A stretch of 64,000 nucleotides of DNA from Candidatus Woesearchaeota archaeon (lineage in GTDB: Archaea; Nanobdellota; Nanobdellia; Woesearchaeales; GW2011-AR9), in NCBI GenBank assembly GCA_945861715.1, contig CAMAVK010000004.1:784-64783 (forward strand). The letters are read 5' to 3'. Shown piece by piece: positions 3,620 to 35,409 of this stretch (positions are counted from its first letter, which is position 1; the number at the start of each line of letters is the position of its first letter). A program made the position numbers and the translations under genes. The notes below the pieces were generated by a model. That model saw only the letters and a list, made by a program, of their open reading frames with translations, was not told where the DNA came from and did no database searches.

Positions 3620-4855
3620 CTATTTTTGAAGTGATTTTATGGCGGCGCGATGAGTTGTTGGTATATTCTCCTCGAGATAGTCTGTTTCTTCGGCGCTGAG
3701 ACTTAGTTCTACACTGAGTTGGGGGTTCTTTTTGAGCATGAATGAGAGGTACGGTACTTGGGTGAAAGCTATGTGTTTACTCATGTGACATTTTTGCGCA
3801 AGTTTTAGTGCGATTTCTTTTCGTTTCCCGTTTTTTTGTTTCATCTGCCAAATTTTGAGGAGGCGCATGGTTTGTTTGTATTGCACAAATGCGGTGTTCC
3901 GTTCTCCTTTTGCGCTTGAGATTCCTGCTGTGAGAAGGTTTGTTACATAACTTAGGAATCGCCAATGTTGTCTTTTCATAATACGACCCTGGAAGATGTC
4001 AGCTCGAGATAGAGATTCGTACGCTCTGGCTAGACTTTCTGCATTTGTGTATTCAAATGGGAGGTTGTAGTCGAGCCAGAGGAATACTTCATTCATTTCA
4101 ACGTCCATGTCGTCGAGTGCTGGTAAGGCATTTTCTACTTTTGATGATTTGAAGATGAGTGTTAAAGCATTGAAAATGGTTTCAGTGCGTTTTCTTGGGG
4201 TGAGCGTTGAGAGACGGTCATAGGTTACTTGACCACTATCGCTGAGGATTTGAAGGTCGATAAGTGCGCTTCGAAGGTCACCACCTGATTGTCTTGCCAG
4301 GGAGTTGATGGTTTTTTCGTCCGTTTTTATTTTTTCTTGTTCACAGACCCATAACAAGGTGTGGGCAATTGCTTTGTAGTCTAATTCGTTGTATTGTATT
4401 TTGAGACACGCTTTTTGGAGCGGTTTGAATTTGCTATCACTTGTGTCGTTTGCGGTTAAGATGATGGGAAATTTTGATTTGGTTATTGAATCTACTATTG
4501 CACTTACAGCACCACGATCAAGAGTTCCCGATACGTTATCAACTTCGTCGAGAAGAATTATTTTTGGACGGAAAAATAGTGATTGTTGGTTTAAGGAGTT
4601 GTTTAGAAATGATCGTACTGCTTGTTCACTGCGGTCTTCAGAGCTGTTTAATTCGAGAAGATCATAATCTAATTCTTTTGCGAGTGCTACAATACTTGCT
4701 GTTTTTCCACAACCATTAGGTCCCTCAATTAATATTGCTCGATATTTCTGTGTTTTGTAGGTACTTATGAAATTCTTGACTTGAGCTAAAGAGAGATCTT
4801 GACCAAATATCTGCGATGTGTTTTTTGGTTGATAGGTGGTAGTGAAGAGTGGCAT
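3620..4855 (-). CDS. rfcL: Replication factor C large subunit
   Basis: Walker A GPNGCGKT, ELNSSEDR, Walker B ILLDEVD, GGDLRSALIDLQ, and the C-terminal SRADIFQGRIMKRQHWRFL. Confidence 0.96.
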   Translation of the reverse strand: MPLFTTTYQPKNTSQIFGQDLSLAQVKNFISTYKTQKYRAILIEGPNGCGKTASIVALAKELDYDLLELNSSEDRSEQAVRSFLNNSLNQQSLFFRPKIILLDEVDNVSGTLDRGAVSAIVDSITKSKFPIILTANDTSDSKFKPLQKACLKIQYNELDYKAIAHTLLWVCEQEKIKTDEKTINSLARQSGGDLRSALIDLQILSDSGQVTYDRLSTLTPRKRTETIFNALTLIFKSSKVENALPALDDMDVEMNEVFLWLDYNLPFEYTNAESLARAYESLSRADIFQGRIMKRQHWRFLSYVTNLLTAGISSAKGERNTAFVQYKQTMRLLKIWQMKQKNGKRKEIALKLAQKCHMSKHIAFTQVPYLSFMLKKNPQLSVELSLSAEETDYLEENIPTTHRAAIKSLQK

Positions 4856-4878
4856 TGGGTGTTTTTGGTTTTGGATTA

Positions 4879-5337
4879 TTAAAATACTTTGTATCCATCC
4901 AATATTTTCATGATGGGTTCGATGTGATTTGGAAGTAGTGTGGTATGATATTTATTTCTTAGTCGCATTGACATTGTTGGCCATTCTCCTTTTTGGTTTT
5001 TAGGTGGGTTGTGCACTCGATGTTCTGGGTGCCAGTTTCCATTTTGGTTGGCGGTATCATAAAATCCACTAGGTGGTGCTGGAAGTTTTAGAAAGTCTGC
5101 ACTATCTGGAGAAAATTCAATGTAGTTCTCTTTTCCAGTTAGGTGATAATAACAGGAGCGAAATACTTTATCTTGCTGGGCAGGGGATAATTTAAACTCA
5201 GTGTCGTTTAGGTGTTTATCTAGTCCGTCTTCCAATTTTTGGTTGGGGTAGAGGAATAGTATGCCTTGAGGCGAGGTGTGAATTTTAGTGGTTAGGAAAT
5301 ATAGTGTTTCACTAATTGCAAGAGATGGATTATTCAT
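4879..5337 (-). CDS. Hypothetical protein
   Basis: 152-aa ORF with an ATG start, co-oriented with its neighbours. No motif recognised. Confidence 0.6.
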   Translation of the reverse strand: MNNPSLAISETLYFLTTKIHTSPQGILFLYPNQKLEDGLDKHLNDTEFKLSPAQQDKVFRSCYYHLTGKENYIEFSPDSADFLKLPAPPSGFYDTANQNGNWHPEHRVHNPPKNQKGEWPTMSMRLRNKYHTTLLPNHIEPIMKILDGYKVF

Positions 5338-5368
5338 TTTGTATTCCTTTTCTGATTTGTTATAATAT

Positions 5369-5578
5369 TTATAATTTTTTCATGTCGTATAATATGAGAC
5401 AAATGCTTAAAAATGAAAAAAATGCTGTTATTTTGCTTTGTTGCGAGTTGCTTAGGCCGATGTTGATTAATTGAAAGGTGGGATTTACAATTGATACGAT
5501 GAATAGGGTGCAAAAGAGGAGTAGAAGGACGGTTAGGAGGATGAATATTTTGTGACGGTACTTTTGATAGTCTTTCAT
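5369..5578 (-). CDS. Small membrane protein (frame choice uncertain)
   Basis: Two hydrophobic segments. An overlapping alternative frame (5334..5696) exists. Confidence 0.4.
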   Translation of the reverse strand: MKDYQKYRHKIFILLTVLLLLFCTLFIVSIVNPTFQLINIGLSNSQQSKITAFFSFLSICLILYDMKKL

Positions 5579-5941
5579 AATTTGTGAAGAGGGACTTATG
5601 GTTTATAAGAAAAGTGTTTCTTGAGGCTATATCTTGCAATGTTTGTTGTGTTTTTGTAATTTGATTTATCTTTATAGAGAACTTTGCATAATTCATAAAA
5701 ATTAGGCAAAGTTATCAAAGAGCACTTTGCAACGGCGCAGTTTAAGCAAATTTTTGCACCTCGTGGTGCAATTAAAATGTGACAAACTGCTTCACAAGAA
5801 AGGATATTCATCCTTTCTGTGCACAAATAAAGTCGCTGCTTTATTTTGTGTTTGCAAAGTTCTCTATACTTTTTATGATGTATACTTTAGTAGTAGCATA
5901 AGGGTTAAATAGTTCTTTGTGCGTTTTGAGATATCGGTGAT

Positions 5942-7372
5942 GTGTATATGAGAATTGGGTTGACGTATGCCGATGTTCTTCTTGTTCCTAAGCGAACACC
6001 TCTAGCTTCTCGAAGCGAAGCGATTACAAAAACGATGTTTACTCGAAATATAACTTTATCTATTCCTCTTGTGTCAGCTAATATGGCAACTGTTACTGAG
6101 CATAAGATGGCAATTGCACTTGCGCGGCATGGGGGAATTGGAGTTATTCACCAATTTGGATCGATTGAAGATCAGGTCCGTGAGATACAACTTGTGAAGA
6201 GGTCAACTAGTTCAATTATTGAGCGCCCACTATGTGGGGATTATTCAATTACTATTCGTGAGGCGATTACTCGGATGCAAACTGAGGGTGTTACGAGTTT
6301 GTTGATTATGAAAGATGGTGAACTTGCAGGAATTTTTACGTCTCGTGATTATTTGTTTGAAAAAAATTGGGATCGAGGAGTTGCGGAAGTAATGACACCT
6401 CGCGGTCGTTTGGTTACGGCTCCGTTTGGGGTTTCGCTTGAAGAGGCAAAGCATATTTTGCATCAACATCGTATTGAGAAGTTGCCTTTACTCGATACTG
6501 CATCTGGGAAAGTTATGGGTTTGATTACTACTCAAGATATTAAAAAATTGGAACAATGGCCGCAAGCGAGTCGAGATACGAAGGGTAGGCTTCTTGTGGC
6601 TGCTGCTATTGGTGTTAAGGATGCACTTGAGCGTGGAGAGGCGTTGGTTAATGCGGGTGCGGATTGTTTAGTTCTGGATATTGCGCATGCACATTCTGAC
6701 TTAGTGATTACTCGCTTACGTGAGTTAAAGAGTCGGTTTTCTTGTGATGTGATGGTGGGAAATATTGCAACAGCTGAAGCGGCCCGGGATCTCATTGAAG
6801 CCGGTGCGGATGGGTTGAAAGTTGGTATTGGTCCGTCTCCGGTCTGTTCGACTCGTTTGATGGCGGGTGCGGGGGTTCCTCAACTTACGGCGATTATGGA
6901 TGTTGCAGCTGTTGCGCGCTCTTATGGAGTTCCTGTTACAGCAGATGGTGGAGCGAAACATCCTGGCGATGTTGGTAAAGCGATTGCAGCTGGTGCGTCT
7001 ACTCTGTATTCTGGCTCATTTTTTGCTGGGTGTGATGAGGCTCCAGGTATGATAATTATGAAGGAGGGGAAACGGTACAAGAAGTATCATGGCAGTGCGT
7101 CGTATGAGAGTTCACATAAGCGCAAGGAGTTGGAGAAAGGAGTGGTGATTAAAGAGCGGTTTGACACCTTTGTTGAAGGTGTGTCAGTGCTTGTTGATTA
7201 TAAGGGGCCAGTTGCTGATGTAATCTTTGGTCTTATTCGTGGGTTACAGTCGTCAATGAGTTATTGTGGCGCGCGAACAGTATTGGAGATGCATGAGAAT
7301 GCGGAGTTTATGCAAATCACGGCTGCGGGTTGGGAAGAATCGAAGACGCATGGAAATAAGACGGGGGATTAG
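5942..7372 (+). CDS. guaB: IMP dehydrogenase/GMP reductase family protein with CBS pair (may be a GMP reductase)
   Basis: Motifs [35 protein letters not shown] domains (HRIEKLPL), [31 protein letters not shown] and ADGG. The start is probably ATG at 5948. Confidence 0.9.
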
Positions 7373-7503
7373 GGGAAGTTACAAAGAGAAAGAAAAAGAA
7401 TAGAGCACTGTGGATAATTTATTTTTTATGCTAAATGTCTCTAAAATATATCAGTTAGATATTAATATTGGATAAAATAAAAAAATAATTATAATTTGTT
7501 TGA

Positions 7504-8307
7504 TTACTCGGATTCTTGTCGTTTACGTAATATCAGTAATCCAATTATTCCACCTATTACCAATACTATTGCAATGATCCAAGGAGTATTACTTCTGGTG
7601 CTTTCGTTTTTGTTTATAAGCGAAGTAATTGTTATGTCTGCTTCTTGATCTTGAAGGTTTACACTATTTAGTGTTATTTGTAAATCGTTTGTTTTGTCTA
7701 GATCAATATCAATATCTTTTGACTCTTTTATGTTTAATGTTATTGTTTGTGGATTACTGCGAACGGTTATGGTTGCACTTGTGGGGGTAACCACATCTAT
7801 TGTTACTTCGTGGAGTTCTTCTATATTGGAGTTTGAGGTTGGGATGTTAAAATCCGCTTTTTCTCCTTGTTTAATAGAAGCTGTGACTTCTATAGTGTTT
7901 TCTGCTGCGATTGCGTTTCCTGCGGCTGCACGATTGTTGTTTTGATTATTAAATTGCAAATGTTGAATTCTTGGTTCTGTTGTTGGGGCAATTGGTGCTG
8001 GCGTATTTCCTTGAGTTGGTACTGTAGGTTGTTCAACAGCGGGTGCAGGAGTTGTCTTTTCAGGTGCTGGTTCGCTACTTGGTGTGGTGGTTATGTCTGC
8101 AGTGTTATCGGTGGTTGGTGATGAACTTGAACTGCTTGATGATCCTCCGCCACCACTAGAACTGCTTGATGAACTTGAACTGCTGCTTGAGCTGCTCGAT
8201 GAACTGCCTGAACCAGGTGAAGCTGGTCCATATGCGGCAAATACTACTCCACCAACTAATAGTGTGAGGATTAGATATGCTGCAATTTGTTTTAGTCTTG
8301 ATTTCAT
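7504..8307 (-). CDS. Secreted cell-surface protein: signal peptide, Ser/Gly run, Pro/Thr linker, beta domain, C-terminal TM anchor
   Basis: N-terminal hydrophobic signal, poly-Ser, PAPEKTTPAPA linker, and WIIAIVLVIGGIIGLLIL followed by RKR. Confidence 0.85.
   Translation of the reverse strand: MKSRLKQIAAYLILTLLVGGVVFAAYGPASPGSGSSSSSSSSSSSSSSSSSGGGGSSSSSSSSPTTDNTADITTTPSSEPAPEKTTPAPAVEQPTVPTQGNTPAPIAPTTEPRIQHLQFNNQNNNRAAAGNAIAAENTIEVTASIKQGEKADFNIPTSNSNIEELHEVTIDVVTPTSATITVRSNPQTITLNIKESKDIDIDLDKTNDLQITLNSVNLQDQEADITITSLINKNESTRSNTPWIIAIVLVIGGIIGLLILRKRQESE
8120..8215 (-). repeat. Low-complexity Ser/Gly codon repeat inside the surface protein gene
   Basis: Repeated gaacttgaactgc / gatgaact units on the + strand encode SSSS...GGGG...SSSS. 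Confidence 0.8.
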
Positions 8308-8308
8308 T

Positions 8309-9955
8309 TTAACATCCCCACTCTGCTGGCACTTGCCATATAGTGGTGTTTAGTGTTGTGTTGTACAATAACCTCGTTGAACTGGAAGTTTTGTTGGTAC
8401 AGTTTCCAAGGCTTGCTGAACATTGCCATAATTCACTTACATTACCTGGAATTCCAATTTGTAATTTTGTTGGTCTAAATGAGTTTATTAGCTCTTGACA
8501 TTTCGATGTTCCTAGACCAATGAATTTCCCAGTTGATGTGGAGTTGAAGGCAATGTCGTTTCCTGCTGTAAAGTTTTGGGCTGAGCTGCTTACTTTACTT
8601 CCCAGGCTTGCGTTGACTAATACTATACGCCAATATTGACTACCTGTTGAATTTGGATTCTCAATTATCATGTTGAAACTTTTGGATTGGGTGTAGTTTA
8701 GTTGTATACCTGTTGAGGTATTGGCATTCATATCTTGTTTTGTTCCATCTGGCAGTTCAAATGTAAATTTCATATTTCCCATTGGATCAGATGCTATAGC
8801 ACCATTTTGTGTTTGGAAGGGAAATGTAAACGTACTTGAACAAGATTTACAACTGGCAAAACTGTTTTTGGTCGTAAAATTTAAACATCCACTTATCGCA
8901 CAGTTACTTGAGATGTCACATACTTTGGTTTTTAAGTAATAAGTTGTTGCATTTGTCAAAGTATAAGGGAGACGTTGCGGGTTGAAGCTGTAGCTATCAA
9001 TTGTTCCATCATGCCATGTGTTGTAGTCTATTTTTCCTGAGTCTAGTAATCCATTGTCTAGAATCGTTGCGTTTAGGGTAGTACATGAACTATCGTTATA
9101 ATAAAATTGGATAGTACCATTTGCAGGTTCACTGGTATCATAGGTAATGAAGGCACTATCGGGAAATGTATCAGATTTAAACCATGTTATTTTTGGTGCT
9201 GTTTTATCGTTTGGATCAATTGCAAGTGTTCCACCACAAAAGAAGGAATCAGTTTTACAACCGGAATCAGTACAATCGGTTAAGCCGTCTGCGTCGTTAT
9301 CAATATTATCACCACATTGGAATCCTACTTCATTAGGAGTGTAACCAAATTTAAGAAAATTTGAGCAATCAGGATCCATACTGGCTATTAATCCATCACC
9401 ATCTGCGTCTCCACCGGAGTTTTCACAATCTTCAAATTTAAAGTCAAATGATCCTTGGGTGTAATAATATGGTCCGTCATTATCTACAATTAAACTATCA
9501 TTTGAACTGTTCCCAGAGGTAATATAGAGGCGGAGGTCTTTTGATTTATTGAACAAGTTTCTAAATTTGAATAATTCTGTTTTTTCAATTCCTATTACTG
9601 GTCCGCTTACTTTGCCACACATTAATTGTGAGCTTACACCTAATGGAATTGGCACTGGTCCCCATGAACCATTCACACATTGATATGATGCTTTGGTTTC
9701 TTGTAAATTGGTTGTCCATTTTCCAGAGTATTTAAATGAGAATTCGTACCCTGTATTGTTTGGATTATCTCGACTTGCACAATGGTTTGTGCTGTTTCCG
9801 TCAGCGTCAAAATACCAGATGTACGTTGCGTTTCTATCACCTGTTCCAGGTTGGAACATGAAGTTTCCACCGTCTCCATCAGAACCGGAAGGGCGCACTG
9901 GAATATTTTTACATGTTGCTGCTAAACTAAAATTACTTACAGTCATTCCAATCAT
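8309..9955 (-). CDS. Cys/Asp-rich surface protein, C-terminal part (Ca-binding-like DxDxDG motifs, FN3-like domain)
   Basis: Motifs DADGDGLIASMDPDC and CGDNIDNDADGLTDCTDSGC, plus FN3-like DSAFITYDTSEPANGTIQFY...TTYYLKTKVCDISSN. It is in frame with the upstream ORF. Confidence 0.75.
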   Translation of the reverse strand: MIGMTVSNFSLAATCKNIPVRPSGSDGDGGNFMFQPGTGDRNATYIWYFDADGNSTNHCASRDNPNNTGYEFSFKYSGKWTTNLQETKASYQCVNGSWGPVPIPLGVSSQLMCGKVSGPVIGIEKTELFKFRNLFNKSKDLRLYITSGNSSNDSLIVDNDGPYYYTQGSFDFKFEDCENSGGDADGDGLIASMDPDCSNFLKFGYTPNEVGFQCGDNIDNDADGLTDCTDSGCKTDSFFCGGTLAIDPNDKTAPKITWFKSDTFPDSAFITYDTSEPANGTIQFYYNDSSCTTLNATILDNGLLDSGKIDYNTWHDGTIDSYSFNPQRLPYTLTNATTYYLKTKVCDISSNCAISGCLNFTTKNSFASCKSCSSTFTFPFQTQNGAIASDPMGNMKFTFELPDGTKQDMNANTSTGIQLNYTQSKSFNMIIENPNSTGSQYWRIVLVNASLGSKVSSSAQNFTAGNDIAFNSTSTGKFIGLGTSKCQELINSFRPTKLQIGIPGNVSELWQCSASLGNCTNKTSSSTRLLYNTTLNTTIWQVPAEWGC

Positions 9956-10864
9956 CTATCTGTCGAAGTCGTCCATTAATCCTACATCTAACACATCTAA
10001 ATGGGGATAAATAGTATTATTTGAGCTGTCTGTTCCCAAAATTGTTGGTTGTTTGTTTCCAAGTTGGTTTACGAAGTTAGCATCTGATTTTGATTGACAC
10101 CATCCGGGGAATTCAGATGAGCTTACGTTGTTTGAGGCTTTTTGATCTACAAAGTAGGTACATGTGGTATTCATTTGACCATTACATTTTGTTTGATTTC
10201 CATTGCCGTTAAAACATCCTCCACTAAATGCGGTTGCTTCACATGTGCCTGAAATTTGTTCACAGAGTCCTTTGGTAATGGTGGTGTTTGCACAGCTTGA
10301 TGAACTTAGGCTAAAACAGGATGGTTGACAGTTACCAGCTGGGTTAAATTGTGTATTCCATGAACAGATTTGTGTTGGTTGTCCTGCAATACTAAAGTTT
10401 GCTTCACAAGCAGCTTGACTATTTCGCCTGCTTGCGTTGCTGTTACATTGTGAGAAGACTACTGGTTCACACCATCCACTTTGTCCTCCTGGTCCTGAAA
10501 AACCACTGCTTCCACTATTCCAACCACATGCGGTATTTGTTGTACATGCTGATAGGTTCTGGGATTGAAAACAGGAACTAAAGAGTGTTTCATTTTGCAT
10601 ACATAATGGTGTACTTGCGGTTTGGAATGAACATCCTGCAGTTGCGTTACATCCTGCAGAATTTCGCCCTTGTGCTCCACATTGAGCTCCTGGGAAATCA
10701 CAGTGACCTGAACTTCCTGCTCCGAATTGTTGATCAAATCCATCACGGAGCCATTGACATCCATTGGTTGTGAATTTCTTAATGTCGGAAGAATTAAATA
10801 TGCAGTTGAGGTAGTTATGGTATGCGATATCTTTCAAAACTTGGTGTGCGTGAAGTTCGTGCAT
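8309..10864 (-). pseudogene. Probable single large Cys-rich surface protein gene interrupted by one in-frame TAG (9956-9958) and lacking its 5' end
   Basis: The junction reads GAC TTC GAC AGA TAG ATG ATT GGA in one frame. The upstream part has Cys-rich modules, no signal peptide, and runs into the pgk start. Confidence 0.55.
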
Positions 10865-29584: not shown

Positions 29585-29952
29585 GGTAGGGTGGCGTAAG
29601 CCGCCTTTTGTTAGGCCCAAAGAAAAACCGTCATATATGTTTTTCCGATAGCCATTGAAAGCATTCTACTTAGCGTCGAATCGACTTGCACCAGGGGGGT
29701 TTCACCGTTTCATCGTTCCCACAAAAGACGTCGATGGGTTATCTCATGTATGTTGCCATACACTTCGCCAGGTCATTCCATTTTTGTGGACGTGTCGTGT
29801 CTGAGCCAGAGCCACGGAATTTCTCCGTCTGACATTGTATTCAGTCCCTTTTTTTAGGTGGGCGGACTTTCCTCACAGGCTAAATCATTTTACTGATCTA
29901 TGGGACTTATTGCATTCCCTAAAGCTTGCGTAAGCTTTCTGCCACTACTACC
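29585..29952 (-). ncRNA. rnpB: RNase P RNA
   Basis: The minus strand has GAGGAAAGUCCG (P4 5' side), GAAACGGUGAAAC and AACAAAAGGCGGCUUAC (P4 3' side). The termini ggtagtagtggc/gccaccctacc pair as P1. TATA-like CTTAAATA lies just upstream. Confidence 0.93.
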
Positions 29953-32175: not shown

Positions 32176-33318
32176 TTGCTCTTTTTGCTTGTTATGGCTC
32201 TTTTACTTGATATGTTGCTTGGTTTTTGTCAGAATTATTTTGGTTTTACCTTTCTTGCTAATCAGTATTATGCTGCACTTTTCATTGTTGGCATGTTTGT
32301 TATTTTGGCACAAGTAATTTTGTTAGGTTTTAATATTTATTTACGACATCTCGCGAAGCGCACGACAACTCAATTTGATGATCTTATTTTTGATCAGACA
32401 AAACAACCGTTATTTGTGTTTATTTTAATTTTTGGAGTACGTCTGGCTCTTGAGCATGTTGGTGTCATTGGTTCTTTTACTAATTTGATTGATTCGGCTC
32501 TTGCCATGATTTTTTTGTATTTAGTTGTTCGTGTTACAGATGTTGCGATTCAAACGTGGGGTGATGTTGTTGCAAAGAAAACTGATACTCCAATTGATGA
32601 AATTTTATTGCCTTTCCTGCATAAGATTGTGAAGGCGGTTTTTGTCATTATTGGTATTATTTGGTTACTTCATATCTGGGGCGTTGATATTACCCCGTAT
32701 TTAGCTGGAGCGGGTATTGCGGGTATTATTTTAGGTCTTGCACTTCAAGATTCACTGAAGAATATTCTTGGTGGCATTAGTTTGCTTCTTGATAAGACGT
32801 ATCAAGTTGGTGATAAGGTAGCGCTTGAGAATGGTGAGATTGGTCAGATTTCTGATATTGGACTTCGTAGTACAAAGATGGTGACGTATGATAATGAAGT
32901 GTTGTATGTTCCAAATGGGTATATGGCAAACTCTCGAGTTCGTAATTATACCCGACCTGATCCGTCTGTTCGGGTCAAGGTTGATTTTGGGGTTGAGTAT
33001 GGGTCTGATGTAGGGCATGTTCAAAAAGTGGTACTCAAGGTGATTGATTCTATTGAAGGGGTTAAGAAAGAACCTGTTCCTGCGGTTAATTTTTTGTCGA
33101 TGGGAGATTTTGCCCTTAAATTTAGGGCTACTTTTTGGGTTGAGACGTGGGGGCTTGAGTTTCCTCGGAAAGTGGAAGCTACGGAGAAAATTTATAACGC
33201 ATTGAATAAGGCAAAGATTGGAATACCATTTCCGACACAGACGGTACTTTTGTCTAAAGCGGGTAGAGTTTCGCGTTCATCAAGAAAGTCTGTTCAAATT
33301 TTTAAGGTTAAAGAGTGA
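32176..33318 (+). CDS. mscS: Small-conductance mechanosensitive channel MscS family
   Basis: Motifs LAGAGIAGIILGLALQDSLKNILGGI, YQVGDKV, DIGLRST, VPNGYMAN, VDFGVEYGSD and GIPFPTQT. Confidence 0.96.
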   Translation: MLFLLVMALLLDMLLGFCQNYFGFTFLANQYYAALFIVGMFVILAQVILLGFNIYLRHLAKRTTTQFDDLIFDQTKQPLFVFILIFGVRLALEHVGVIGSFTNLIDSALAMIFLYLVVRVTDVAIQTWGDVVAKKTDTPIDEILLPFLHKIVKAVFVIIGIIWLLHIWGVDITPYLAGAGIAGIILGLALQDSLKNILGGISLLLDKTYQVGDKVALENGEIGQISDIGLRSTKMVTYDNEVLYVPNGYMANSRVRNYTRPDPSVRVKVDFGVEYGSDVGHVQKVVLKVIDSIEGVKKEPVPAVNFLSMGDFALKFRATFWVETWGLEFPRKVEATEKIYNALNKAKIGIPFPTQTVLLSKAGRVSRSSRKSVQIFKVKE

Positions 33319-33374
33319 TTTTTTCTATTTTTGAGTGATAATCTTTAAAAGTGGGCATCTTTTTTATTCCTAGT

Positions 33375-34118
33375 ATGGCACAATTAAAAGTATCTCTACC
33401 TAAATTTGGATTTAATTTGTTGCAACAGTTTGTTGCGGATCGAGGAAGTGGAAATTTAACCGATGACGCGGCAAGACGGGCGGTGTTATATTTAGAGTCT
33501 AATTTATGTTTATTTAAAGGAATGCCTGAAGAAGTTTATGTTCGTGCGCTTGCAGAACATTATCGAGTGGGTGAAATACGTGCAATTCAGTGCGAGTTAA
33601 CTGAAATTTATCATTTGCCCACTAGTCAATTGCCTGTGCCAAGTCGGGTTCGTACGTTTTTTGAAGATCATAAATTAAATCGGATTGGTTATGTTGTTCA
33701 GTTCTCTCGAAAAGATTTCGTTATGTCTAAAAATTTTGGGTTGGGAAGTTTTGCACAGATGATGGATGTGTTACATGGAATTGATTCTCGTATAGAAGTT
33801 GGTTCACCTATTACATATGTTCATGATTCGGATGCTTTTCAGGTAAGGACTTGTCTTGAGCAACCGGTCATTGATGTTATTATAAATCCTGAGACACGTC
33901 TTTTTCGTTTTTTTGAGCGGCAACGGGAGATGATTGAGAAAATAGAAAGGAATGTTCGAGTCGCTGATTTTGTGATTTTTCCTGAATCGGTTATTTCTAT
34001 GTCTGATTATCAACGACGCAACGCTTTAGATTCACTGAGGCATCTTCATCCAAGCATTCATTTTGGGATGGATAAACAGTATTTGAATGAGAAGTTGGGT
34101 ATTGAGTTTGCTCAATAG
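33375..34118 (+). CDS. Hypothetical protein with an RNA polymerase alpha-CTD-like (HhH) domain
   Basis: SQLPVPSRVRTFFEDHKLNRIGYVVQFSRKDFVMSKNFGLGSFAQMMDVL parallels the alpha-CTD 'L.LSVR..N.L....I..IGDLV......L....NFG.KSL.EI'. Confidence 0.65.
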   Translation: MAQLKVSLPKFGFNLLQQFVADRGSGNLTDDAARRAVLYLESNLCLFKGMPEEVYVRALAEHYRVGEIRAIQCELTEIYHLPTSQLPVPSRVRTFFEDHKLNRIGYVVQFSRKDFVMSKNFGLGSFAQMMDVLHGIDSRIEVGSPITYVHDSDAFQVRTCLEQPVIDVIINPETRLFRFFERQREMIEKIERNVRVADFVIFPESVISMSDYQRRNALDSLRHLHPSIHFGMDKQYLNEKLGIEFAQ

Positions 34119-34185: not shown

Positions 34186-34371
34186 ATGGATCCGTTTTTT
34201 ATTGTTACAATACTTATTGGGGTTATACTACTTGGCGTTATCGTTAAGATTATGCCTTTTTTGTTGAAGGCGCTTTTTTGGGTTCTTATTGTGGTTTTGT
34301 TGCTTGTTCTGATTTTTAGTATTTCTTGGAATGATGTTATGGGTTGGGCTAGCGGAATTAGTTTGTGGTGA
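34186..34371 (+). CDS. Small membrane protein
   Basis: Two hydrophobic helices, ATG start. Confidence 0.7.
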   Translation: MDPFFIVTILIGVILLGVIVKIMPFLLKALFWVLIVVLLLVLIFSISWNDVMGWASGISLW

Positions 34372-34452
34372 TACAGATGTACTTTATTTATATTTTTGTT
34401 TGTGGGATTTGATTCCCATAATCTATTTAAAGACCACAAGATGTGTAGTAGC

Positions 34453-35409
34453 ATGGAGTCAACTATTTGGACAGAGAAGTATAGGCCAAAACAATTTTCT
34501 GAGATTGTAGGTCAAAAAGATATTATTGCAAAGATTTCGGCGTTTGTGAAGTCAGGTAATATGCCTCATCTTATGTTTTCTGGTCCAGCTGGAGTTGGAA
34601 AGACTACTCTATCTCTTGTTATTGCACGTGAGTTGTTCGGCGAGAATTGGCAACAAAATACTCTTGAACTTAATGCGTCGGATGAGCGTGGTATTGATGT
34701 TGTTCGTGTGAAAGTGAAAGATTTTGCTCGTACACGGGCAATTGGTGATGTTCCATTTAAGTTAATTTATCTCGATGAGAGTGATGCGCTCACACGCGAA
34801 GCGCAGCAAGCTCTTCGTCGTACGATGGAAAATTTTACGAAAACGTGTCGATTTATTTTGTCATGTAATTATTCTTCAAAAATTATTGATCCTATACAAT
34901 CTCGATGCGCAGTGTTTCGGTTTAAGCCACTTGAAGTGGCTGATGTGAAGGTAGTTATTGATCGTATTGTTGTTCAGGAGGGATTGGTTATTACTGATGA
35001 TGCTCGTGCGGCTCTTTTTGAAGTATGTGATGGGGATTGTAGGCGACTTGAGAATATTATGCAGAGTTGTTCTGCCTTGTCTTCCACTATTACCGCTGAA
35101 GTGGTGTATTCCATGGCGTCGGTTGCAAAACCTAAGGAAGTTTTAGAGTTGCTATCTTTTGCAGTTCGTGGAAATTTTCTTGAATCTCGCAAGAAGTTGC
35201 TTGAAGTGATGCTTGAATATGGTCTATCTGGTCTTGATATTATTCGGCAGATTCAGAAGGAGATTTGGAATTTAGATCTAAGCGATCGCAAGAAAGTGGA
35301 GTTAGTTGATAAGTGCGGCGAAGTGGAATTTCGAATGGTTGAAGGGAGTGACGAGTATATTCAACTAGAAAGTTTTTTGGCGTTTGTGATGCTGGTTGGT
35401 AGTCGGTAA
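34453..35409 (+). CDS. rfcS: Replication factor C small subunit (no intein)
   Basis: Motifs IWTEKYRP, GPAGVGKT, ELNASDERGIDVVR, LDESDALT, QQALRRTME and IQSRC. Confidence 0.98.
   Translation: MESTIWTEKYRPKQFSEIVGQKDIIAKISAFVKSGNMPHLMFSGPAGVGKTTLSLVIARELFGENWQQNTLELNASDERGIDVVRVKVKDFARTRAIGDVPFKLIYLDESDALTREAQQALRRTMENFTKTCRFILSCNYSSKIIDPIQSRCAVFRFKPLEVADVKVVIDRIVVQEGLVITDDARAALFEVCDGDCRRLENIMQSCSALSSTITAEVVYSMASVAKPKEVLELLSFAVRGNFLESRKKLLEVMLEYGLSGLDIIRQIQKEIWNLDLSDRKKVELVDKCGEVEFRMVEGSDEYIQLESFLAFVMLVGSR

Follow-up and report, generated by a model that had tools for sequence, protein, structure and literature searches.

A diverged homologue of the bacterial RNA polymerase alpha C-terminal domain in a free-standing protein of a Woesearchaeota archaeon

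Here we describe a gene located at positions 33375 to 34118 on the + strand of a 64,000-nt stretch of contig CAMAVK010000004.1 from a Candidatus Woesearchaeota archaeon (assembly GCA_945861715.1). This whole stretch is referred to as the window, and its numbering is used for all coordinates of the locus. The gene encodes an intact protein of 247 residues (P0001), a part of which is related to the C-terminal domain of the bacterial RNA polymerase alpha subunit (alpha-CTD; Pfam family RNA_pol_A_CTD, PF03118). As judged by profile comparisons, residues 76-140 of P0001 (33600..33794, 65 residues; the numbering starts with the ATG at 33375) are truly homologous to the alpha-CTD, although diverged, with a likeness that is specific to this domain and not one of generic helix-hairpin-helix (HhH) proteins. 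To our knowledge, an alpha-CTD is missing from the RNA polymerases of archaea, where TBP, TFB and TFE recognise the promoters. P0001 gave no Pfam or NCBIfam match to the alpha N-terminal domain (PF01193 / PF01000) and is thus not a part of RNA polymerase. The reading that we favor with moderate confidence from the sequence evidence is that P0001 is a real and intact member of a very rare archaeal family, which would act as a free-standing DNA-binding factor.

An initial annotation of the window had proposed an alpha-CTD-like domain at 33612-33783, which corresponds to residues 80-136 of P0001. The three signature motifs on which this proposal was based are all found in the protein as L86-P-V-P-S-R91, R103-I-G-Y-V-V-Q109 and K119-N-F-G-L-G-S125. 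A search with the RNA_pol_A_CTD profile, which had been suggested as a check, gave no direct match, as Pfam did not report PF03118 on P0001 even at E<=10 and a six-frame search of the genome with this profile had no match at the locus. The domain therefore lies beneath Pfam's reach (gathering cut-off 23.8 bits). The relative P0003, which is 49% identical to P0001 over its full length (E 1.9e-63), scores 18.6 bits against PF03118 (E 0.0016) and is also under the cut-off, and more distant members of the protein family exceed it with 37.3 and 71.3 bits. Searches of Pfam, NCBIfam and the PDB sequences with P0001 alone remained below the usual thresholds: in NCBIfam the CTD portion of RpoA was matched at E 0.13, AdfA was found in Pfam at E 0.11, and phmmer against the PDB sequences gave a cyanobacterial alpha-CTD at E 0.22. 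An exhaustive phmmer search of 1.84 billion representatives returned three true relatives only. One of them, P0004, a protein of 1030 residues with seven PF03118 repeats, was matched at E 1.1e-8 over residues 79-140 of P0001.

Profiles made from several members of the protein family gave a much clearer result. A profile of P0001, P0003 and P0005, built without any canonical alpha-CTD member, was compared with the PDB sequences, and all 42 of its 42 matches are RNA polymerase alpha subunits or alpha-CTDs (best E 2.7e-6; E. coli 1coo at E 1.5e-5), while RuvA, XPF, ERCC1, Pol beta and RAD51 do not occur among them. With a profile of seven family members the alpha-CTDs of the PDB were found at E 1.5e-19, and an hhalign comparison of the P0001 and P0003 region with 16 bona fide PF03118 segments resulted in a probability of 97% and E 5e-11. 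A better fit of the P0001 domain to generic HhH families (HHH_5 and HHH_2; XPF/Hef, RuvA and RAD51 N-terminal domains) than to the alpha-CTD was not found, and generic HhH proteins are missing from the matches of all these searches. For the XPF/Hef proteins of related archaea, the similarity to PF03118 is confined to its second hairpin, and HHH_5 gives them a higher score. The homology proposed by the initial annotation is thus confirmed by the profile searches. The ESM Atlas provided low-scoring leads (0.81-0.82), two of which point to PF03118 clusters, and returned nothing for the N-terminal part of P0001.

The structure of P0001 was predicted with AlphaFold. A first model based on an alignment of three sequences was poor, with a predicted local distance difference test (pLDDT) of 41.8. 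A second model, for which the alignment comprised 16 rows of protein-family members and archaeal alpha-CTD segments, reached a mean pLDDT of 81.5 and a predicted template modelling score of 0.69, with pLDDT values of 91-97 over residues 81-140. In this model the domain forms a compact double helix-hairpin-helix, (HhH)2, that can be superposed on solved alpha-CTDs. The leading Foldseek matches in the PDB are all bacterial or plastid alpha subunits, and isolated alpha-CTD chains align with the model over 55-73 residues with a root-mean-square deviation of 0.9-1.8 A and a target TM-score of 0.8-0.9. Thus, the fold check that had been proposed also leads to the alpha-CTD, with a model that depends on an alignment containing alpha-CTDs.

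Two of these results would be expected if the resemblance were due to chance or convergence and the domain were a generic HhH or SAM-like helical domain unrelated to the alpha-CTD, namely the missing match of PF03118 to P0001 and the weak Foldseek E-values of 0.02-0.9. The latter are weak because the domain is short. Against such an origin, the three-sequence profile retrieved alpha-CTDs and no other HhH proteins, P0001 is linked transitively to relatives with 37 and 71 bits, above the Pfam cut-off, hhalign gave the E-value mentioned above, alpha-CTDs exceed the other HhH and SAM folds by 4-5 Z units, and the genuine generic HhH proteins of related archaea behave differently toward PF03118. 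We consider a chance resemblance effectively refuted.

The residues of the alpha-CTD that contact DNA were then compared using the alignment of P0001 with E. coli 1coo, the numbering of which was checked on N268, C269, N294, G296, K298 and S299. Four of the seven residues of the 265 determinant (R265, N268, N294, G296, K298, S299 and E302) are identical in P0001: R91 (codon 33645..33647) corresponds to R265, the arginine that inserts into the minor groove, and N120, G122 and S125 correspond to N294, G296 and S299. The last three are located in the second hairpin N120-F-G-L-G-S125 (33732..33749), which was placed by alignment both to E. coli and within the protein family. P0003 keeps five of the seven residues and has N at position 268. 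The R265-equivalent arginine is present in six of seven family members, and F121, G122 and S125 are invariant across the family. Furthermore, the G-L-G of the P0001 hairpin resembles the canonical HhH sequence G-h-G, a hairpin that binds phosphate. DNA binding is predicted from the four retained residues that correspond to R265, N294, G296 and S299 and from the HhH-like hairpin. In the mechanism that we propose, R91 and the N120-F-G-x-G-S125 hairpin would hold the alpha-CTD-like domain on the minor groove and backbone of DNA, and oligomerization or contacts to partners would be mediated by the helical domains at the N- and C-termini. P0001 might then serve, for example, as a regulator or as a nucleoid-associated accessory protein.

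A number of observations weigh against this reading. Three of the seven determinant residues are changed in P0001 (N268 to T94, K298 to G124 and E302 to Q128), and the protein is not basic, with an isoelectric point (pI) of 6.5 for the whole protein and 8.4 for the alpha-CTD-like part. PF03118 fails on P0001 itself, the first structural model was poor, and the structural match of the second is not independent of the sequence evidence, because the modelling alignment held genuine alpha-CTDs. In addition, alpha-CTDs are also protein-contact modules, so that a role as an adaptor is equally compatible with the fold, and a passenger gene in decay would also be compatible with the very patchy distribution of the family.

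As an adaptor, the domain would bind a protein partner instead of DNA. Candidate partners are the sigma-70-like proteins of the genome, in imitation of the contact between alpha-CTD and sigma region 4 in bacteria, and also RNA polymerase or a transcription factor of the archaeon. Bacterial alpha-CTDs contact CAP, sigma region 4, Spx and NusA, and such complexes are among the structural matches of P0001. The near-neutral pI would also be in line with this role, as would the two sigma-70-like proteins that the source genome encodes outside the window, one with regions 2+3+4 in a 735-aa frame (contig 3, ~67.7-68.4 kb, locus L042) and one of 244 aa with regions 2+4 (contig 2, ~296.6-297.3 kb, locus L043:922-1656). 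The surfaces used by bacterial alpha-CTDs for protein contacts are, however, not kept. In the sigma-contacting 261 determinant, D259 and E261 are replaced by Q85 and P87, and its acidic character is lost, although the short relative P0008 retains D-x-D at this site. The CAP-contacting surface 285-289 (287 determinant) reads S-R-K-D-F in P0001 and is not kept either. We therefore regard an adaptor function as possible but rather unlikely.

Alpha-CTDs are repeatedly fused to sigma region 4 in related archaea, which again would speak for an adaptor. PF03118 exceeds its cut-off in 17 of the 401 sampled genomes of the phylum, several of these being XPF/Hef cross-matches, and a full-length alpha-CTD is present in about 11 of the 401 genomes (~3%). 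In five of them (G020, G175, G293, G362 and G399) it is fused to sigma-70 region 4 in proteins of ~395-410 aa (L006:1474-2661(-), L007:1492-2682(-), L008:517-1698(+), L016:490-1716(+) and L018:475-1707(+)), of which the L016 protein has two alpha-CTDs and the others one. In G020, which is of the same taxonomic family as the source genome, the contig with the fusion also contains an archaeal MscS-RFC gene block. A fusion of this kind is absent from the source genome according to the six-frame PF03118 search. Sigma70_r2 was detected over its cut-off in 155/401 genomes of the phylum and in 32/41 of the taxonomic family, as compared to 0/4 control archaea (the phylum tallies for PF03118 and Sigma70_r2 include the genomes G346, G357 and G272, which are flagged as unpublished, on which no individual claim depends and the omission of which shifts the counts by <=2). 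Genomes with a full alpha-CTD contain Sigma70_r2 in 8 of 13 cases versus a background of 39%, a difference that is not significant among genomes that are related to each other and that counts against the adaptor. Our tally agrees with Castelle et al. 2021 (PMC8204110), who reported sigma-70 genes in Woesearchaeota. In the open-access papers searched, archaeal proteins with an alpha-CTD-like domain are not described.

In bacteria, the alpha-CTD and sigma region 4 contact adjacent DNA, i.e. the UP element and the -35 element. One could therefore imagine that P0001, together with the sigma-70-like proteins of the genome, forms a bacterial-style reader of UP element and -35 sequences on mobile-element or host promoters and thereby recruits or blocks the archaeal transcription machinery, with the fusion proteins as its covalent version. 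We mention this combination as a speculative idea with a small chance of being correct.

Searches for further members of the protein family covered 5.8 billion proteins, 401 genomes of the phylum and 60 close relatives. The family has about eight members, and P0001-type members occur in 3 of the 401 sampled genomes. The long forms are P0001, P0003, P0005, with an identity of 25-27%, and a 218-aa protein of genome G247. The short forms of 156-183 aa are P0008 from genome G361 (MBI2499592.1, 'hypothetical protein HYV88_05100, Candidatus Woesearchaeota archaeon'), P0010, P0012 and P0128. No further relatives were detected by pattern scans of contig collections from genomes, viruses and metagenomes, and PHROGs and phage genomes had no match to P0001. 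All members have an N-terminal helical domain followed by the alpha-CTD. In P0001 this N-terminal domain comprises residues 1-74 (33375..33596) and contains the motif P51-E-x-x-Y55-x-x-A-L59-x-x-x-Y63, which defines the family and in which P51, Y55, L59 and Y63 are invariant. These comparisons reveal a new architecture, confined to a tiny family, in which this domain of about 70 residues is joined to an alpha-CTD. P0001 had been called an orphan, which is nearly correct except for the about eight relatives that share the new N-terminal domain, and the survey of taxonomic distribution that had been recommended thus yields a very rare family in a phylum where full alpha-CTDs are otherwise limited to the few percent of genomes given above.

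A C-terminal helical extension (residues 151-247, 33825..34115) with the motif L224-H-P-x-x-x-x-G-M232 is restricted to the long forms P0001, P0003, P0005 and the G247 protein, in which it ends with L-H-P-x-x-x-x-G-M. Its helices are modelled with pLDDT values of 39-89. The extension shows a weak in-register likeness to the alpha-CTD of P0001 itself (hhalign E 0.008, probability 5%). It was considered as a second alpha-CTD repeat and rejected, as the comparison with reference alpha-CTDs was not significant (E 0.1). For the N-terminal domain two identities were examined and discarded. A derivation from the last part of the alpha N-terminal domain was rejected, since hhalign aligned it to RpoA without CTD only at E 0.3 over about 10 columns at 'Y-x-L-G-E'. 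A weak match of this part of the protein to a SAM-like integrase domain, observed in one genome at E 8.8e-4, was not confirmed by structure search. Tandem repetition of alpha-CTDs is seen in P0004 (1030 aa; NCBI/ENA, on an 8.7-kb contig), where seven copies are separated by low-complexity linkers, an architecture of which we know no description.

The open reading frame can start at either a GTG at 33351 or the ATG at 33375 and ends with the TAG stop codon at 34116-34118 (33351/33375-34118, +). A TATA-box-like sequence, TTTAAAAG, is located at 33344..33351 on the + strand, where it overlaps the GTG, and its center lies ~27 nt 5' of the ATG. Because of this spacing, the ATG at 33375 rather than the GTG at 33351 is the likely start codon. 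The argument rests on the established geometry of archaeal promoters, and from the same spacing the message of P0001 would be leaderless or nearly so. The conservation of P0003 over the full length together with the TATA-like box 27 nt upstream shows that P0001 is encoded by a real gene.

The origin of the domain can be seen from the short forms. Their alpha-CTDs pass the PF03118 cut-off easily (71 bits) and are 50-70% identical to the C-termini of RpoA proteins, several of them named Phycisphaerae or Tepidisphaeraceae. Because of this identity to RpoA tails of the Planctomycetota type, the module is of bacterial origin. In a tree of the alpha-CTD domains P0008 groups with bacterial RpoA tails with a support of 94 in the Shimodaira-Hasegawa-like approximate likelihood ratio test (SH-aLRT); this tree has 61 columns, is poorly resolved and is too weak to date or place the transfer of the long form. 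By these sequence relationships, the alpha-CTD of P0001 is best described as a strongly diverged descendant of the bacterial module.

The genome itself is archaeal. An RNase P RNA of the archaeal type lies at 29587-29950, and the small subunit of replication factor C (RFC) is encoded nearby, which bears out the archaeal host assumed initially. The source assembly has a size of 1.3 Mb in 8 contigs and is 98% complete. Upstream of the P0001 gene, an MscS-type mechanosensitive channel with Pfam MS_channel domains is encoded at 32176..33318 (+). Downstream follow a gene for a 61-aa micro-protein with two transmembrane segments (MDPFFIV..., 34186..34371, +) and, as the next large gene, the RFC small subunit (Pfam Rep_fac_C and AAA; 34441..35409, +). 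The RFC small subunit is present in 44 of 46 genomes of the taxonomic family. Among the 29 RFC loci examined in other members of the taxonomic family, 23 have MscS upstream of RFC, and in 18 of these the micro-protein gene alone separates the two. Homologues of the micro-protein occur immediately upstream of RFC in 25/31 loci of the taxonomic family, and because of this conservation its gene is considered real and probably unannotated. The P0001 gene is placed between MscS and the micro-protein gene and was not found at this site in any other genome examined. Thus, it is a lineage-specific insertion of a single gene into a conserved order of MscS, micro-protein and RFC genes.

This insertion is not recent, because the base composition of the gene (GC 0.378, GC at third codon positions (GC3) 0.27) matches that of its neighbours (0.38-0.41 and 0.30-0.32, respectively) and no direct or inverted repeats flank the site. 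The horizontal acquisition suggested initially is therefore supported as a bacterial origin at the level of the protein family, but not as a recent entry into this genome. The G247 member of the family is found in the context of an integrated element, between an integrase, a divergent TrmB-type regulator and a D5-type primase-helicase. This island covers 170-10309 of contig 20 (L077), with the integrase at 170-976, the TrmB-family regulator at 4650-5405 (-), the alpha-CTD member at 5475-6131 and the primase-helicase of 1017 aa at 7256-10309 (-). The P0001 family probably travels on mobile elements.

Such a context raises the question of whether P0001 is a drifting relic of a mobile element that is of no use to the cell. 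Its extreme patchiness, with 3/401 genomes of the phylum and ~8 sequences among billions, would fit this view, as would the strong divergence of its alpha-CTD compared to the short forms. The gene was also not found in two genomes of the same genus; both of these are, however, only 80-85% complete, and in one of them a contig ends exactly at the insertion site. On the other hand, the frame of 247 codons is intact and preceded by a promoter-like TATA box, the 49%-identical P0003 keeps the motifs of all three parts including the invariant core residues, the fold is predicted with confidence, and the composition is fully adapted to the host genome. A decaying passenger gene is thus improbable in our view, and we retain the DNA-binding factor as the preferred reading.

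It had also been suggested that P0001 might mimic a host transcription contact. In this reading the symbiont would deliver a protein that imitates the bacterial alpha-CTD and hijacks activators or promoters of its host. The bacterial origin of the module would agree with this proposal, and DPANN archaea are thought to be symbionts according to PMC8204110. The known hosts of cultured DPANN archaea given there are, however, other archaea, which lack partners for an alpha-CTD. We found no support for mimicry. Neither a signal peptide nor secretion-related neighbours were seen, the surfaces by which alpha-CTDs contact activators are not conserved, and the G247 member belongs to a replicating or integrating element and not to a secretion system. 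A role of this type is considered very improbable.

When P0001 is compared with RpoA (PF03118; 1COO, 1LB2, 3N97 and 3K4G), the alpha-CTDs share the (HhH)2 fold and the order of helices. The core I/V-G-x-V/L-V aligns in register, as does the tail after the last helix, which reads D-S-R-I-x-V-G in P0001 and G-L-S-L-G-M in RpoA. The two domains are only ~20-25% identical, and P0001 stays below the Pfam threshold. In contrast to RpoA, P0001 is an archaeal protein without an alpha N-terminal domain, unrelated helical domains lie on both sides of its alpha-CTD-like domain, and N268, K298, E302 and the 261 and 287 determinants for protein contacts are missing. The short forms share with P0001 the PExxYxxALxxxY N-terminal domain preceding the alpha-CTD. 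They differ in that the C-terminal extension is lacking and the alpha-CTD is nearly bacterial, ending with L-G-M-R-L-E/D-N/H-Y/F-V as in E. coli. Uncharacterised stand-alone alpha-CTD proteins are also known from tailed phages and bacteria (A0A6J5QDR9, A0A6J5L490 and A0A2P1JY10 of Rhodococcus phage Finch). These proteins are short, with the alpha-CTD as the only recognisable domain, and the small phage proteins are the best viral structural matches to P0001. Like the G247 copy they are associated with mobile elements, but they come from bacterial viruses and have different accompanying regions, and no sequence match was found in PHROGs or phage genomes. The fusions of sigma-70 region 4 and alpha-CTD in DPANN archaea resemble P0001 in bringing bacterial promoter-recognition modules into the same archaeal phylum. 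Unlike P0001, they contain the helix-turn-helix of sigma region 4 and a canonical alpha-CTD and lack the N-terminal domain of the P0001 family.

P0001 thus represents a second bacterial promoter-contact module, besides sigma-70, in Woesearchaeota genomes, in a free-standing form with two new domains. If P0001 and the fusion proteins bind to DNA or to one another, they would offer a concrete and testable handle on the use of borrowed bacterial transcription parts by DPANN archaea or their mobile elements. If not, it is a clean case of domain capture followed by fast divergence past the reach of standard annotation. The alpha-CTD homology of P0001 is solid, and for the time being the protein is best regarded as a well-documented lead from a very small family with a predicted function.

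Several further observations were made at the locus and in related genomes. At the junction of MscS and RFC, relatives carry unrelated open reading frames of 190-209 aa (L055:436-1062, L062:2713-3282(-) and L068:633-1202), whose products contain several Cys residues and resemble lipoproteins at the N-terminus. Small genes seem to have been inserted repeatedly at this junction. In frames of 767-1028 aa (G025:C47, G026:C1 and G427:C1), matches to the RFC small subunit begin at query residue 48-75, which suggests that these long RFC genes contain inteins. Genome G361, the source of P0008, has a thioredoxin-reductase-like gene (L078:2688-4829) that carries an intein with a LAGLIDADG domain. Throughout the window (1-64000), the GC skew of the + strand is positive in all 2-kb bins (+0.04 to +0.37). 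There is also an excess of T over A as far as ~50 kb, and beyond this point the AT skew is near zero or positive.

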